From Thermodesulfobacteriota bacterium (lineage in GTDB: Bacteria > Desulfobacterota_D > UBA1144 > Nemesobacterales > CSP1-2): a stretch of 64,000 nt of DNA. Where the stretch lies: assembly GCA_036397855.1 (NCBI GenBank), contig DASWID010000101.1, positions 289 to 64,288 on the forward strand. The letters are read 5' to 3'. Both the position numbers and the translations under genes were made by a program. Of the stretch, positions 14,657 through 43,788 are shown piece after piece (positions within the stretch are counted from its first letter, which is position 1; each line of letters opens with the position of its first letter). The notes below the pieces were generated by a model. It ran no database searches. It had not been told where the DNA came from and saw only the letters and a program-made list of their open reading frames with translations.

Positions 14657-14707
14657 TTACTGGCGGCGGGAGGAATCGAACCTCCGACAAAGGCCTTATG
14701 AGAGCCC
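14657..14707 (-). repeat. attR: 3' half of the intact tRNA-Met plus 4 flanking nt
   Basis: Identical to 9961-10011. Confidence 0.85.
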
Positions 14708-14732
14708 TGCTCTACCTCTGAGCTACGCCGCC
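14661..14732 (-). tRNA. tRNA-Met (anticodon CAT)
   Basis: Cloverleaf folded by hand: acceptor GGCGGCG/CGCCGCC, D-arm GCTC..GAGC, anticodon loop CTCATAA, T-loop TTCGATT; CCA not encoded; anticodon stem has two G-U pairs. Confidence 0.8.
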
Positions 14733-14899
14733 AAGGTTAGTATTTGGAGTATGTTTCAAGCCAACATAAGGATATTTAACAGTTTTTCTACGCGGGGTTT
14801 ATTTTTATATGTTGATCTGGTCAGTATATCATGGCGGGTCTAACTTTCAAGACGAAACTAGCTTTTTTGTAACAAATTGGGGGTATTAGAAGCGAAATA

Positions 14900-14928
14900 A
14901 ATTTTCCTCTTGACAGATTAAGTAACGT
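14900..14928 (+). promoter_or_regulatory. consensus sigma-70 promoter TTGACA-17-TATAAT
   Basis: Perfect consensus hexamers with 17-nt spacer. Confidence 0.7.
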
Positions 14929-14934
14929 ACTTTA

Positions 14935-15030
14935 TAATCACTTTTAAATTTAAATTTTCAACTTAATGCACTTCATCCTTTATCCTCCTTTAAAGTGGGA
15001 ATGTTTCTAAATCTGGGAGCATTCCCTCTT
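14935..15030 (+). ncRNA. candidate small RNA, copy A (CU-rich anti-SD core AUCCUCCUUUAA + hairpin terminator)
   Basis: Between the promoter at 14900 and the hairpin gtgggaatg...cattccc (14995-15028); about 75% identical to 25512-25605. Confidence 0.5.
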
Positions 15031-15065
15031 AATTCATAAAAATAGCTTCGTTTAAGATTTAATGG

Positions 15066-15902
15066 TTACTTTAAACTTAAGTATTTAGATGGATTTAGTT
15101 TTTTGCCGTTTTTTATTATTTCGTAGTGCAGGTGTGTTCCAGTGGATCTTCCTGTGGAACCTGCGTTACCAATTAGATCTCCACTCTTAACCCTTTGTCC
15201 TTCGTCTACATCTACCTTCGTTAGGTGTCCATAAAGTGTTTGATATCCATTTTCGTGATTGATTATGACGGTATTTCCATAACTGTAATACCAACCTGCG
15301 TTAGTAACTAATCCATCAGCAGTCGCAAAAACTGGTTGTCGAGGTTTCGCTTCGAAGTCTATTCCGGAGTGAAAAGCCGGGGCAGCTCTAAAAGGATCCA
15401 TTCGATATCCAAAACCTGATCTGACATCGGATTTTATGATGGGCTTACCCAAGGGAAAACTCTTAATCGTATTAAACATTTCATATATATCCTTTTCCAT
15501 GTTATCAAGATAGGATAAATCCAATCCGTCGGCCGGGATGTACTCACCTCCCACGGCCAATTCTCTCTTTATACCCTTTCTGTCAAGTAACTCTTGCATT
15601 TCCAAGAGTTTCTTTTCGATTTCTATTAACCTGGATTTCAATACAAGTTCATCCTTGCTCATTTCATTTAATACATTGGACTGACTTTTTAGTTGGTCGG
15701 CCAGTTCTCTTTTCTGATGGGTACTTATTTCAGCTTTTTTGTAAAATTTATATGCAATAATGAAAGATAGAAGTGATACCAACGTGAGTCCAAAAAACGT
15801 GATCAGCATTATTTTAATGTGGTACAGTTTTATGTTAAGGAATTTTGGTACCGTGCATTCAAATTTAAATAAATGAATTTTAAGATTTTCCCGCGTCATC
15901 AC
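15066..15902 (-). CDS. M23 family peptidoglycan DD-metalloendopeptidase with N-terminal coiled coil
   Basis: HxxxD/HxH zinc motifs (HSGIDF...NHENGYQTLYGHL...THLHYEI); TM anchor. Confidence 0.85.
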   Translation of the reverse strand: MMTRENLKIHLFKFECTVPKFLNIKLYHIKIMLITFFGLTLVSLLSFIIAYKFYKKAEISTHQKRELADQLKSQSNVLNEMSKDELVLKSRLIEIEKKLLEMQELLDRKGIKRELAVGGEYIPADGLDLSYLDNMEKDIYEMFNTIKSFPLGKPIIKSDVRSGFGYRMDPFRAAPAFHSGIDFEAKPRQPVFATADGLVTNAGWYYSYGNTVIINHENGYQTLYGHLTKVDVDEGQRVKSGDLIGNAGSTGRSTGTHLHYEIIKNGKKLNPSKYLSLK

Positions 15903-16262
15903 CCATCCTCCTTTACAATAAGGTTAAATTATTGACCTATAAAGCGATTGATCCCCGGACTATGTTTGTGATTCTAAAATTTCGGGAACCAATATAACAT
16001 ATTTTAAAAGAGGTTTACAATACCAGATTTAAACAATTGAAATTTTGCTCCTATGTAGGAGGGTGCAGACCATGCATAATACTTCAAAAAAGAAACAGAT
16101 TCAAAAGAAGACCCATATTACTATTCAAACTACTTTGGCGTATCTCGTTTATGATCTTGCGATGGTGTTATTTATATAGTGTCAGTATAGAATTGACTCA
16201 AGAGCGATTGTGAAAGTCATCTTAAAAATTCTTTAACAGTCGATGTGGGTTTGAAAGTTGAT

Positions 16263-25040: not shown

Positions 25041-25280
25041 TTTATTAAGCTCGAAACGCAGCAAAGAACTTTTAATTAATTTCGATCATTGTGAGTTTTT
25101 TATTTATTTCGAAATAAGTTGGTATCTAGTTTTTGTATTGCATTTTTCTTAGCTTCTTGCTTTGTGAGGCTCAGATATTTATCTTGAAAACTATAATAAC
25201 TCAAGAAAGTTTGTAGCCAAATCTGTAGCCCATTGAAATTGATGAGGAGGCGATAGGACGTAACCCCCTGATTTTATTGG

Positions 25281-25356
25281 TGGAGATGAGGGGATTCGAA
25301 CCCCCGACCTCCGCCTTGCGAAGGCGGCGCTCTCCCAAACTGAGCTACATCCCCAC
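25281..25356 (-). tRNA. tRNA-Ala (anticodon CGC)
   Basis: GGGGATG acceptor with G3-U70, anticodon loop TTCGCAA, T-loop TTCGAAT, CCA encoded. Confidence 0.85.
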
Positions 25357-25476
25357 TTTTTATACCAAAATCATTCGGTTTTTGTATAAATTAGATATAA
25401 CTAACTTGAAATTTTATCCAAAATTGCTAAAAAATACTAACCGAAAGTAAATTAATTAAAGAAATTAAAAAACTAC

Positions 25477-25505
25477 TTGACAACTTAAGTAAATTGCTTT
25501 ATATT
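25477..25505 (+). promoter_or_regulatory. sigma-70 promoter TTGACA-17-TATATT
   Basis: Near-consensus hexamers with 17-nt spacer. Confidence 0.65.
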
Positions 25506-25511
25506 AATATT

Positions 25512-25605
25512 CAGACTTAATTTGAAAACTTAAATCATCCTCCATCCTCCTTTAAGATAGTGGGAATGTTTCTAAACCCTTTAGGTCATTCCCACTTTTC
25601 TTTTT
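25512..25605 (+). ncRNA. candidate small RNA, copy B (anti-SD core + strong intrinsic terminator)
   Basis: Promoter at 25477; terminator gtgggaatg(25560-68)...cattcccac(25587-95) with inner ctaaa/tttag stem and ttttcttttt tail. Confidence 0.6.
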
Positions 25606-25724: not shown

Positions 25725-27212
25725 TCACTTTGATGCTGCTACTGCTCGATCTGATGCCCATCTCTCTAATCTGGAAATCTCTTCACGCATGGTTGTAGAG
25801 AGTGGAACTATAGAAGATGCTGCGATTATGAGTTCTCTCTCATCCAATTCCTTTTGTTTTGAATAGGCTTCAAAAAGGGCAGAGACCACAACCTGTTCAA
25901 TCTCTGAACCGGAAAGTCCTTCAGTGTTCTTGGCAAGGGAATCTATATCGAAAGAGTCGGGATCCTTATGGCGGTTGACAAGATGAATTCGGAATATCTC
26001 TTTTCGTGCTTTTTTTGATGGTAGGGATACGAAGAAGATCTCATCAAACCTGCCCTTTCTCAAGATCTCTGGCGGTAGCAAGTCGATTTGATTTGCAGTG
26101 GCAGCTATAAATACGGGGTATTTCTTTTCCTGCATCCAGGTAAGGAAAGAGCCGAATATCCTCGATGCGGGACTATCGCTTGTCTTTTCTCCGCTTCTTG
26201 TGATCCCGGCCTCAATCTCGTCTATCCATAGCACACAGGGAGAAATTGTCTCAACGGTCTTTATTGTGTTTCGAAAGGCTTCTTCGGGTGTTCCAAATAT
26301 GCCGCTATAAAGTTGATTTAGATCGAGCCTCAATAGCGGTAAATTCCAAACAGAAGCGACAGCCTTAGCACATAAGCTCTTACCACAACCGCTAATTCCC
26401 ATTATCAGTAATCCCTTTGGCATGTCAAGGCCGTATTGCCTGGCATCGGGGGCAAATGCTAATGCCCTGGTTTTTAGCCATTCCTTAAGATTTTCAAGTC
26501 CGCCAATGTCATCCAAGCCTACTCTACCTCTGATGTATTCCAGTGTTCCGATTCTATTTATTAAGAGAGCCTTCTCATCCATGAGGGATGTAACAATCTC
26601 TTCTTCACTTCTTTCTTCTCCATCCAGCAGAATCCTCTTTAGAGCAAATTTCATTTCGGAAGATGCAAGACCCTGCAAAGCGTGAACGCATTTTTCCCTG
26701 AACTCGGGGGTATAGTGATTTTGATGGCTTTTATCTTTAAGTGGACTTGTCACTTCGTCAAATATTATCCTGGCATCATCTGAATCTGGAAGTCCAATTT
26801 CGAATATGGTCATTTCCCTTTCTAGTTCAGCGGGAAGGACTACAGAGGGTGAGACGATGAATAGGGTTTTAGAGCTACTTTTCAAGGTTTGGTGCAGGTC
26901 TTTCAATTCTCTTATTATCTTTGGGTCCTTAAGAAAAAAGTGAAGGTCTTTAAAAAGAAAGAATCCCTTTTCATTGGTCTCTTGAACTTTTTTCAAAGCA
27001 CTCAAGGCGTCGTTGATTCCTTCTGATTCTCCATTCTCGCCACTAAACCCGTTGGTACAGGACCAGGAGTATACATTGTAATCATCACGGAACGACTCCT
27101 TCGAAAGCAGTCTCAGCGACTCCTCGACACGTTCTTCTTCCCAACTAACAAGGTAGATAAGTGGATATTCAGCCCTTATAAAACTTGCTATTTTTTCAGA
27201 TGGAAATGCCAT
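25725..27212 (-). CDS. AAA+ family ATPase with an uncharacterised N-terminal domain
   Basis: Walker A GISGCGKS, Walker B LWIDEIE, and an arginine-finger region in the C-terminal half. Confidence 0.6.
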   Translation of the reverse strand: MAFPSEKIASFIRAEYPLIYLVSWEEERVEESLRLLSKESFRDDYNVYSWSCTNGFSGENGESEGINDALSALKKVQETNEKGFFLFKDLHFFLKDPKIIRELKDLHQTLKSSSKTLFIVSPSVVLPAELEREMTIFEIGLPDSDDARIIFDEVTSPLKDKSHQNHYTPEFREKCVHALQGLASSEMKFALKRILLDGEERSEEEIVTSLMDEKALLINRIGTLEYIRGRVGLDDIGGLENLKEWLKTRALAFAPDARQYGLDMPKGLLIMGISGCGKSLCAKAVASVWNLPLLRLDLNQLYSGIFGTPEEAFRNTIKTVETISPCVLWIDEIEAGITRSGEKTSDSPASRIFGSFLTWMQEKKYPVFIAATANQIDLLPPEILRKGRFDEIFFVSLPSKKARKEIFRIHLVNRHKDPDSFDIDSLAKNTEGLSGSEIEQVVVSALFEAYSKQKELDERELIIAASSIVPLSTTMREEISRLERWASDRAVAASK

Positions 27213-40554: not shown

Positions 40555-43266
40555 ATGAATAAAAATGTTCTATATCTTATCGATGGCAGCTCCTACATAT
40601 TTAGAGCATATCATGCCATCAGAAAACTGAGTAATTCAAAGGGATTTCCTACAAACGCTATATACGGGTTTACAAACATGATTTTCAGGTTTCTAAAGGA
40701 TTATGAGCCCGAGTATCTCGGAATTGTTTTTGATTCAAAGGGGAAGACGTTCAGGGACGAAATCTACCCGCTTTACAAAGCCAACAGGGAAGAGCCACCT
40801 GATGATCTCAAGCAACAGTTTCCAAAGATTTTTGAGGTGGTCGATGCGTTGGCCATACCGAAGTTTCAACTAGAGGGTTATGAAGCGGACGATCTTATAG
40901 GAACAATAACAAGGGATTCGGTGAATAAGGGCGTAAGGGTTGTACTCGTTACCGGAGATAAGGACTTCAGCCAGCTTGTTTCAGAGACTGTTACACTCAT
41001 CGATACTATGAGAAATAAAGAAACTGGTTATAAAGATGTTCTCGAAAGATTTGGTGTTCCACCTGAAAAGGTAACGGATGTCTTTGCCCTTTCCGGAGAC
41101 TCTATTGACAATATTCCGGGTGTGAAGGGTATCGGTGAAAAAACTGCAAAGGAGCTGATCAGTAAATATGGGTCTTTAGAAGGTTTATTTGATAACCTTG
41201 ATAAACTGAGCAAGAGGCAAAAGGAGCTCATAGAAAAAAATACAGAGAATGCAATGCTGAGTAAAAGGCTTGTAACCATCAAAACCGATGTTCCCATAAA
41301 ATTCAGTCTCGAGGATTTTAGATTTCGAGGTATTGATAAGGGCAGGCTTGGAAAGCTTTTTGACGAGCTGGAGTTCAAATCCTTACTGCGTGAACTAGGC
41401 GAGATCGATAATTCTGCTGTGGAAAAATCTAAGAATAATAATATCAAAAGTGAAGTTTATTACGATAACTATCGTCTGGTGTTGTCTGACGATGACCTGG
41501 CGAAAGTAATTGATCGAATAAAAGAGGGGGGAGAGGTCTCCATAGATCTTGAGACTACATCTCCGGAGCCTATGAGGGCTAAAATCGTCGGGGTTTCCCT
41601 TTCTACTGCATCGCATGAGGCTTGCTATGTACCCGTCGCTCACAGGTCTCTAGTCGATTCCAGACAACAATTAAGTCTTGATCATGTTCTTGAACGGCTG
41701 AAATCAATCGTTGAAGATGAGAGAGTCAATAAAATAGGTCAGAACCTGAAATACGATTATATTGTCCTCGAAAAATATGGATTAAGACTTCGGGGAATCA
41801 TCTGTGATACCATGATTGCGGCGCATCTACTGGATTCTTCCAGGATGAGCTATAGCTTAGATGAGCTTGCGAAGATCTACCTTGGTCATAACACAATTAC
41901 CTATAAAGACCTCACAGGGTCCGGAAGGAGTAAGATTGATTTTGAAGAGGTGGAGTTGGAGAAGGCTAAGGTGTATGCCTGCGAGGATGCCGATGTTGCT
42001 ATGTTACTCTTCAAAAAACTCGTTCCATTACTTCAAGAACTTAACCTGATAAAGGTTTTCAAAGAAGTTTATCTTAGGTTAATTGAGGTTCTCGCAAGGG
42101 TGGAAATTAATGGTGTAAAAGTAGACTCCTCTCGTTTAAAGGAATTATCTATGGAGTTCCAAGCTGGACTGGAAAGCCTGGCAAGTGACATATACTCCCA
42201 GGTTGGATATGAGTTTAACTTGAATTCTCCCATCCAGTTAAGGGAGGTATTATTTGGTAAACTGGTTTTGCCCAAGAAAAAGCTCACAAGGACTGGCGAA
42301 CCTTCTACCGATGTCGATGTGCTTAATGACCTAAGCAGACTGCATCCGGTTCCCGAGAGAATACTCGAATTCAGGGGGCTCTCAAAGCTTAAATCAACCT
42401 ACGTGGATGCGTTGCCGAAGCTCATCAACCCCGAAACGGGAAGAATACATACCTCTTTCAACCAGGTGGGAACCTCCACGGGGAGGGTCAGTTCTAGCGA
42501 TCCTAATCTGCAAAACATTCCTATAAGATCCGAGGAAGGCAAGAGGATCAGGGAAGCCTTTGTTCCCGAAGAGGGGTTCATACTTCTATCGGCAGATTAT
42601 TCGCAAATAGAGCTGAGGCTCCTTGCGCATTTCTCTGGTGATGAGGGGCTTCGGAATGCATTTAAAGCTGGAAGCGATATCCACAATCGAACTGCTTCTG
42701 AGATCTTTGGCGTCCCTGAAGATATGGTAACCCCTGATATGAGAAGACTTTCAAAGAATATCAACTTCGGGATTATCTATGGAATAAGCGCCTTCGGGCT
42801 CGCGAGGCAGCTTGGCACCTCGGTTTCAATAGCAAAAAACTATATGGATGAATACTTTAAGCGTTATAGCAGTGTAAAGAAATATATGGACGAATCGGTT
42901 AGAGTTGCGCAAGATAGGGGCTATGCGGAAACAATTCTTGGAAGGAGAAGGCCAATACCAGAGCTGGGATCTACCGACAGGACCGTCCGAGGTATCGGGG
43001 AAAGGACAGCCATCAACACGCCGATTCAGGGTTCTGCTGCAGACATTTTGGAAATTGCTATGGTGAAAATACATGACAAATTGGCTTCAGGCTATAAGTC
43101 CAACATGATTCTACAGGTTCATGATGAACTTTTATTTGAGGTTCATGAAGACGAACTGGATGTAATTTCGAGGATGGTAAAGGAGGAAATGGAGGGTGCC
43201 TTTACCCTTGAGGTTCCTCTGAGGGTAGATATAGGAGTGGGTAAGAGCTGGGCAGAGGCTCATTAG
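40555..43266 (+). CDS. polA: DNA polymerase I
   Basis: 5'-3' exonuclease, 3'-5' exonuclease and Pol A palm motifs (DYSQIELR, QVHDELLFE); 903 aa. Confidence 0.95.
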   Translation: MNKNVLYLIDGSSYIFRAYHAIRKLSNSKGFPTNAIYGFTNMIFRFLKDYEPEYLGIVFDSKGKTFRDEIYPLYKANREEPPDDLKQQFPKIFEVVDALAIPKFQLEGYEADDLIGTITRDSVNKGVRVVLVTGDKDFSQLVSETVTLIDTMRNKETGYKDVLERFGVPPEKVTDVFALSGDSIDNIPGVKGIGEKTAKELISKYGSLEGLFDNLDKLSKRQKELIEKNTENAMLSKRLVTIKTDVPIKFSLEDFRFRGIDKGRLGKLFDELEFKSLLRELGEIDNSAVEKSKNNNIKSEVYYDNYRLVLSDDDLAKVIDRIKEGGEVSIDLETTSPEPMRAKIVGVSLSTASHEACYVPVAHRSLVDSRQQLSLDHVLERLKSIVEDERVNKIGQNLKYDYIVLEKYGLRLRGIICDTMIAAHLLDSSRMSYSLDELAKIYLGHNTITYKDLTGSGRSKIDFEEVELEKAKVYACEDADVAMLLFKKLVPLLQELNLIKVFKEVYLRLIEVLARVEINGVKVDSSRLKELSMEFQAGLESLASDIYSQVGYEFNLNSPIQLREVLFGKLVLPKKKLTRTGEPSTDVDVLNDLSRLHPVPERILEFRGLSKLKSTYVDALPKLINPETGRIHTSFNQVGTSTGRVSSSDPNLQNIPIRSEEGKRIREAFVPEEGFILLSADYSQIELRLLAHFSGDEGLRNAFKAGSDIHNRTASEIFGVPEDMVTPDMRRLSKNINFGIIYGISAFGLARQLGTSVSIAKNYMDEYFKRYSSVKKYMDESVRVAQDRGYAETILGRRRPIPELGSTDRTVRGIGERTAINTPIQGSAADILEIAMVKIHDKLASGYKSNMILQVHDELLFEVHEDELDVISRMVKEEMEGAFTLEVPLRVDIGVGKSWAEAH

Positions 43267-43788
43267 TCATCAATGTATAAGCCAGATATTTCGAGGACAG
43301 ATCCTAAAAAGGATTAGCCTTACTTAATTTGTTTTTCTTTTTTACCTTCTTTGTCTTGATACAAAGAAGCAAAGATCAAGGCTGTCCAAAAATTTGCTAA
43401 AAATCATACACTCCGACTAAAAAATTTAATCCAACCGCGACCCGCAAATTTTTTTTAACGTCTTCGTTTCTGATTTTCTTAACGCAATTTTTGGAAGGCC
43501 GATAAAACAATAAACGTCATTCAAGTCATTGCGAAATTTGTGAAGCAACTTGAAGCAATCTCCTGCCCTTCCCGTGTTTGAGATTGCTTGGTTCCCTTCG
43601 ACCTAGCTCAGGTTTCCTTGCGATGATAACAAGAAGAAGCTATTGGCGATATAAGACATTAGCTTTGTCAACAAAATAAAAAAAAATAAAAAAATATCTG
43701 GACATTTAAAAATAACAGGTATAAAATGAAGAGGTCTTGATATAGTTTTTAATCTGAAGTTGGAGGGTGGAGACTTCCATATAAAATT

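Follow-up and report, generated by a model that had tools for sequence, protein, structure and literature searches.

A multi-copy small RNA gene family with a conserved, unpaired CU-rich block in Candidatus Dadabacteria

Does the short gap between a tRNA gene and a convergent protein-coding gene in a Thermodesulfobacteriota genome encode a discrete small RNA (sRNA), and if so, what could that RNA act upon? The gap lies in the window, the whole 64,000-nucleotide stretch of DNA that was analysed, and the unit in question, copy B, occupies positions 25477-25605 of its plus strand. In the initial annotation copy B was a stand-alone sRNA gene, equipped with a promoter and an intrinsic terminator of its own and paralogous to a second unit, copy A; the comparative data support each of these elements. 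The region is very probably a genuine sRNA gene. Its predicted RNA of ~94 nt belongs to a multi-copy family in Candidatus Dadabacteria, for which the comparisons show the gene architecture and its conservation, the terminator structure and an accessible seed.

Layout of the transcription unit

Copy B begins with the -35 hexamer TTGACA (25477-25482), read from the sequence and recovered by the promoter scan, followed after a 17-nt spacer by the -10 hexamer TATATT (25500-25505; family consensus CTTTATwTT). The promoter is present exactly as first described and scores 11 of 12 consensus positions in the scan; the window has eight promoters with at least 11 of 12, where dinucleotide shuffles have 1.7 +/- 1.3. 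The spacer contains the palindrome AAGTA-N3-TGCTT (25487-25499; family consensus AAGTA-N3-TACTT), a candidate operator. An A-rich tract reminiscent of an UP element lies 5' of the -35 hexamer (25455-25476), is conserved in the family logo as aaAAata from -45 to -38, and, judged by its sequence, may act as an UP element.

From the position of the -10 hexamer, transcription probably starts at about 25512, ~7 nt after the promoter, and the predicted transcript (~25512-25605) measures 94 nt. The earlier figure of ~94 nt therefore stands as the length of the whole predicted transcript; the gap between promoter and hairpin is shorter, 53 nt counted from the -10 hexamer. The RNA opens with an A/U-rich 5' part (25512-25535) carrying the boxes CTTAA (25516-25520) and ACTTAA (25528-25533). 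Next comes the CU-rich seed (25536-25555), an exact match to CAUCCUCCAUCCUCCUUUAA (in DNA, CATCCTCCATCCTCCTTTAA) that consists of two tandem AUCCUCC units. The terminator hairpin (25559-25597), drawn from the predicted fold and from covariation in the family, has an outer stem gtgggaatg / cattcccac (25560-25568 / 25587-25595) and an inner stem ctaaa / tttag (25572-25576 / 25580-25584), and runs into the T tail TTTTCTTTTT (ttttcttttt, 25596-25605); both stems and the tail were located correctly at the outset. The transcript folds at -20.8 kcal/mol (z = -3.5), with none of 200 shuffles as stable, and the CU block is unpaired in the predicted fold.

Neither an ATG nor an internal ORF of at least 40 aa is present on the unit's plus strand, in line with the annotated absence of protein-coding potential. 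Its placement between tRNA-Ala and an AAA ATPase gene on the other strand also agrees with the annotated neighbours, namely tRNA-Ala(CGC) upstream (25278-25354, minus strand) and a convergent gene for an AAA ATPase of 495 aa (25725-27212, minus strand). On the tRNA side an extended -10-like element, TGGTATAAA (25355-25370, minus strand), stops just 4 nt short of the 5' end of mature tRNA-Ala, and at that distance the tRNA leader would be very short or absent.

The hairpin lies 120 nt beyond the stop codon of the AAA-ATPase gene, a placement that could suit a cis-acting element, whether a 5' leader or attenuator or a promoter combined with a bidirectional terminator for this convergent gene, and in ~24 loci of one sub-lineage a lipoprotein gene does lie downstream on the same strand. 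A cis-acting role is nevertheless very unlikely. Both window copies face convergent genes and so have nothing downstream to lead, and the downstream contexts vary between paralogues. The lipoprotein gene begins at least 100 nt past the terminator, with a promoter-like sequence of its own in between. The hairpin has no U tract after it on the minus strand, and a mere terminator would need neither the conserved promoter nor the 20-nt block.

A paralogue beside tRNA-Met

Copy A (14910-15040, plus strand) has promoter, block and hairpin and matches the covariance model at 72.4 bits; with copy B, at 87.4 bits, it makes up exactly the two matches of the model in the window. Its promoter, TTGACA (14910-14915) and TATAAT (14933-14938) at a 17-nt spacing, is the sole perfect 12/12 sigma-70 promoter in the window, and the palindrome AAGTA-N3-TACTT (14920-14932) matches the family consensus perfectly. 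The CU-rich block had been proposed as common to the two copies, and copy A indeed has the block along with the 5' stem arm and the promoter layout; the 18-nt 5' hairpin arm is identical in both. The copy A block, CATCCTTTATCCTCCTTTAA (14974-14993), has a degenerate first repeat (CAUCCUUU). Its hairpin (14994-15029) is followed by the weak U tract UUAAUUCAUAAAAAU, so its termination may be less efficient or its RNA longer. Copy A is divergent from a tRNA-Met gene (14660-14733, minus strand) and convergent with an M23 peptidase gene (15066-15902, minus strand).

Distribution and genomic context

Metagenomes and MAGs of Candidatus Dadabacteria yielded over 110 distinct sequences with the same architecture, often at equivalent positions, and the family occurs in many Dadabacteria lineages. 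A genome scan, whose query comprised half the CU block and the stem and did not require the first 9 nt of the block, returned 20 loci, 13 of them with the whole architecture. The MAGs behind these 13 members bear the labels Candidatus Dadabacteria, Thermodesulfobacteriota, Desulfobacterota or Deltaproteobacteria, plus two whose bin labels are probably wrong. In the NCBI taxonomy Candidatus Dadabacteria is a class within Thermodesulfobacteriota. Over 8 kb the window shares 87% identity with a Candidatus Dadabacteria MAG, and a "Thermodesulfobacteriota" MAG encodes a protein with 100% identity to the window's M23 protein.

An independent metagenome scan with the 20-mer block alone as query gave at least 120 loci. 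Of the 115 distinct instances among the matches listed, 113 have TTGAC at 50-74 nt upstream of the block, keep both promoter hexamers and their spacing, and continue into a hairpin and T tail on the downstream side. Viral contigs scanned for the RNA gave no match, and a phage origin was rejected on that basis.

Gene positions recur, even between distant relatives. The copy A-type arrangement, with tRNA-Met on one side and a convergent M23 peptidase gene, with or without bactofilin, on the other, is seen at ~18 loci among those listed, and the copy B-type arrangement between tRNA-Ala and the convergent AAA ATPase gene in L004, L011 and L014. Further paralogues lie beside ispE, a lipoprotein gene and other genes, and the recurrent neighbours of the loci are M23 peptidase, bactofilin, SCO1, PCuAC, IspE and lipoprotein. 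Adjacency to a tRNA was considered as a rule for the family and rejected: it is true of the tRNA-Met and tRNA-Ala positions and false at most other loci.

Genomes carry two or three copies of the gene at least, and tandem arrangements occur, as in L024, L058 and L073; in L075 two copies lie ~2.7 kb apart. Three contigs (L036, L066 and L081) begin 4 nt before the 20-mer, with the motif at contig positions 5-24, and the likely reason is that the assembly broke off at a repeat present in several copies. A search of 70 loci for extra copies with divergent seeds gave none that was convincing. At L148:6826-6909 (minus strand) a weak 26.8-bit match carries AUCCCCCUGAAUCCCCCUUU in tandem where the CCUCC repeats would stand, its hairpin is poor and no promoter can be recognised; this doubtful match may be a relative that has degenerated or diverged.

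Conservation of the CU-rich block

As the metagenome scan required the 20-mer, it is uninformative on the conservation of the block itself, which was instead read from sequences found by other routes. The 13 genome-scan loci and the two window copies make 15 listed family sequences, and in 13 of these the block opens with the 9 nt CATCCTCCA; the two exceptions are window copy A and its orthologue in L017. Six loci were also reached through neighbouring homologues of the M23 peptidase, at 50-53% amino-acid identity. Five of them carry the RNA (78-88 bits) with the identical block UCAUCCUCCAUCCUCCUUUA, all divergent from a tRNA-Met, and the sixth has a doubtful match without a promoter. These five unbiased orthologues indicate that the gene, its adjacency to tRNA-Met and the full block are old within the class. 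In deeply diverged orthologues the whole 20 nt are invariant, and the 5' part and the stem change freely.

The strand that carries the function was also considered. The reverse complement of the block, UUAAAGGAGGAUGGAGGAUGA, is a perfect ribosome-binding site, and on the minus strand of both copies a Shine-Dalgarno (SD) sequence is followed after 7 nt by an ATG and a tiny ORF. That the minus strand is the functional one is scarcely credible, however: it is the plus strand that has the T tail and the correctly spaced promoter hexamers, all of them conserved, no conserved promoter exists on the minus strand, and the mini-ORFs vary, with 2 and 8 codons counted from the second ATG and 5-13 counted from the first. 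A mini-ORF product was accordingly rejected, neither length nor sequence being conserved between members.

Secondary structure and covariation

A structural alignment (A2) of 107 distinct family RNAs was examined for conserved pairing. RNAalifold predicted the terminator helix alone. All 13 of its pairs show compensatory changes on both sides, and 91% of the alignment cells are paired; when the 3' partners are shifted by a few columns, pairing drops to 34-55%. Counted over both tested helices, the doubly changed cells number 348, as compared with 114 +/- 15 in shuffles, and none of 500 shuffles reached the observed value. The stem sequences diverge widely between sub-lineages (GUGGGAAUG, AGAGGAAGC, ACGGGAGCAC and AGAGGGAAC, among others) and yet keep their pairing, which points to selection on the pairing and hence on an RNA. 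Most family members have T-rich tails after the hairpin. Mean unpaired probability over the 107 members is 0.88 for the CU block and 0.20 for the hairpin region.

The two 5' boxes, (C)UUAA and ACUUAA, are at least 90% conserved (A2 columns 17-20 and 29-34). A 5' hairpin between them (UUAA/UUAA or UUAAGU/ACUUAA) was tried and rejected, as it would have four invariant A-U pairs only, with the extending pairs unpaired in most members. The ACUUAA box is also complementary to the UUUAAG that ends the CU block, and this pairing would enclose the block in a loop. Such an ACUUAA/UUAAG helix is absent from the thermodynamic folding predictions and, since all its columns are invariant, lies beyond a covariation test.

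Together these data give copy B the marks of a stand-alone sRNA: a conserved promoter of its own, a covarying Rho-independent terminator and an accessible conserved seed, with no conserved ORF on either strand.

The promoter and a candidate operator

The logo of 103 distinct family promoters reads aaAAata.c.CTTGACAttTtAAGtaaaaTaCTTTATtTT, in which (C)TTGACA is nearly invariant. The palindrome AAGTA-N3-TACTT fills the spacer and overlaps the -10 hexamer, and in many members it is extended to TAAAGTA-N3-TACTTTA. Of 148 related loci (~1 Mb in all), 86 contain one perfect copy each, lying in the sRNA promoter spacer wherever coordinates were compared; in the window it is perfect in copy A and has one mismatch in copy B. 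Being almost confined to sRNA promoters in ~1 Mb, the palindrome is a candidate operator and could bind a dimeric regulator.

In the lipoprotein sub-lineage (L034, L043, L050, L095, L100 and others) a conserved promoter-like element, TTTGAAAG-N17-GAGTAAAGTAAT, occurs 50-80 nt past the sRNA terminator. It lies between the sRNA and the lipoprotein gene and holds the TAAAGTA half-site of the sRNA promoter palindrome.

Possible function and target search

The 3' half of the block, CCUCCUUU, carries the universal anti-SD core of 16S rRNA; rRNA was sought in the window and in the fetched related loci for the 16S 3' end of this lineage, and none is present there. By sharing this core, the block is complementary to the AAAGGAGG sites of this organism's genes, and AAAGGAGG is frequent at gene starts in the related loci. 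At its 5' end, 7 nt upstream of CCUCCUUU, the block has a CAU, complementary to AUG, and GGAGG-to-start spacing in the related loci is mostly 5-8 nt. With an anti-SD half and a CAU at the proper distance, the block amounts to the complement of an idealised translation-initiation region.

A mechanism can be proposed on these grounds. Transcription would proceed from the near-consensus sigma-70 promoter, perhaps under control of a regulator at the family-specific spacer palindrome, and stop at the Rho-independent terminator. The unstructured 20-nt block CAUCCUCCAUCCUCCUUUAA, between the A/U-rich 5' part and the terminator, would be exposed as a seed. Its CAU, 7 nt and CCUCCUUU would pair in trans with the start codon and SD of selected mRNAs, and the pairing would block 30S binding, repress translation and perhaps hasten mRNA decay. 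A slight balance of probability favours this statement as a whole, that is, a trans-acting sRNA whose seed pairs with translation-initiation regions and occludes initiation. We infer it rather than observe it, as no conserved target was found.

The target scans covered the window and ~1 Mb of related loci, and within that scope they yielded no conserved target; the list from the scan of all loci is heterogeneous. Within the window the M23 peptidase gene offers the best site, its start region GUAAAGGAGGAUGGGUGAUGA (15896-15916, minus strand), which is complementary to 18 of 21 nt of the CU block at -31 kcal/mol and is also a 22.6-bit partial match of the covariance model on the opposite strand. 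M23 peptidase mRNA was rejected as a conserved target, the complementarity being absent from the orthologous start regions of other loci. The second-best site in the window, at 43165, falls within polA coding sequence and was dismissed as chance. Gene starts were also checked for GGAGG with a following AU, as a sign of co-evolution with the seed; this combination is not enriched (16%, against a background inflated by sRNA antisense).

The length of the block tells against simple pairing. An invariant stretch of 20 nt is longer than most sRNA seeds and exceeds what a pairing seed usually needs, which opens the way to a protein partner or to a global mimic of the anti-SD; the partner behind the invariance could just as well be a protein or a different conserved RNA. 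In the protein version the tandem AUCCUCC would be a platform for an RNA-binding protein with a preference for unstructured C/U-rich RNA, which the sRNA would titrate or guide, acting by sequestration instead of mRNA pairing. The motif is indeed a tandem repeat in a single-stranded region, the invariance of the full 20 nt contrasts with a variable 5' part and stem, the search for a conserved mRNA target came back empty, and multiple copies with near-consensus promoters suggest high abundance. We regard a protein-binding role as rather doubtful all the same. No gene for a candidate protein is linked to the loci, there are two repeats only where known sponges carry many, the first repeat of copy A is degenerate, and the exact complementarity to SD and AUG at proper spacing would have to be a coincidence. 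The conceivable binders, named with the same reserve, are proteins with a KH or S1 domain, Rho, or a factor whose usual partner is the 16S 3' end.

A seed that matches a generic strong SD has little obvious target specificity, and it is conceivable, if quite unlikely, that an abundant RNA competes with the 16S 3' end genome-wide as a general throttle on SD-led translation. The match of CCUCCUUU to the anti-SD core, the frequency of AAAGGAGG at gene starts, the two or three copies per genome at least, some of them tandem, and promoters that are near-consensus or perfect would all fit such a mimic. Stoichiometric competition with ribosomes, however, would need very high RNA levels, and the promoter palindrome suggests conditional control, which is compatible with a global mimic and a specific regulator alike. 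More broadly put, as a multi-copy decoy that either competes with 30S for every strong SD or titrates a factor reading the 16S 3' end, the idea is still unlikely. Were the decoy version true, a single RNA would act as a switch for global SD-dependent translation in the streamlined Dadabacteria, operated through a palindrome-binding regulator. The reading that we prefer remains the pairing of the seed with the initiation regions of selected mRNAs.

Relation to known small RNAs

A search of the window against Rfam 15 at the gathering threshold gave three tRNAs only, and a search of copies A and B with seven other members at E values up to 10 gave spurious matches far below the gathering score. 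No model of the csRNA, RsaE, Yfr1, 6S or CsrB-type families in Rfam 15 matched near its gathering score. The literature search found the motif in no paper and no description of a Dadabacteria small RNA. The RNA thus represents a new sRNA family of a functional kind that is already known.

Several Gram-positive sRNAs, among them RsaE/RoxS, IsrR, 6C and the LhrC type, act in trans through unpaired C-rich or C/U-rich motifs that pair with G-rich SD regions, often independently of a chaperone and sometimes from multiple gene copies. The motifs of the RsaE/RoxS type are CCCC or UCCC in loops, whereas the Dadabacteria sRNA has a linear 20-nt CCUCC tandem, placed between an unstructured 5' part and the terminator; it also differs from this type in having no Rfam match, in phylum and in regulators. 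Yfr1 of cyanobacteria is a short, lineage-wide sRNA with an ultraconserved single-stranded C/U-rich motif beside a terminator hairpin; the motif is ACUCCUCACAC, with two flanking stem-loops, and the gene is single-copy. The Dadabacteria sRNA resembles Yfr1 in its conserved single-stranded C/U motif next to the terminator but differs in the motif itself, in the flanking stem-loops and in copy number, and has no Rfam match. Protein sponges of the CsrB/RsmZ type carry many GGA motifs in hairpin loops, unlike the present RNA, which is pyrimidine-rich where unpaired and has its sole GGA in the paired 5' arm of the terminator.

The streptococcal csRNAs (cia-dependent small RNAs) offer a further parallel. 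They are several similar paralogues of ~90-150 nt, each with its own strong promoter and Rho-independent terminator, and their unpaired region with an anti-SD and a CAU anti-AUG has been interpreted as a block on translation initiation (PMC3091779). In their promoters a CiaR direct repeat, NTTAAG-N5-TTTAAG, lies 10 bp upstream of the -10 and replaces the -35 (PMC3091779). Like the csRNAs, the Dadabacteria sRNA has multiple paralogues, its own promoter and terminator, and an unpaired anti-SD plus CAU. Unlike them, it has a canonical TTGACA and a spacer palindrome with no CiaR direct repeat, its anti-SD unit is tandemly duplicated, and it belongs to another phylum, with no similarity in sequence or to the Rfam model. 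The csRNAs also have a 5' stem-loop, and none is supported in the Dadabacteria sRNA, where only four invariant A-U pairs could form.

The family is a phylogenetically distant and independent example of the csRNA design of paralogues with unpaired anti-SD and anti-AUG, and this points to convergent evolution of initiation blocking. For the uncultured Candidatus Dadabacteria we came across no description of a regulatory RNA; with its strong promoter, candidate operator and 20-nt seed, this clearly delimited family makes post-transcriptional control in the group testable in heterologous systems. The covariance model could be used as the basis for an Rfam family.

Elsewhere in the window, the non-coding stretch 43338-43494, lying between polA and the gene that follows, matches the end of an otherwise distant contig (L125:1248-1404) with 89% identity. 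It has no Rfam match; a further conserved RNA is conceivable here, as is a mobile or repeat element.
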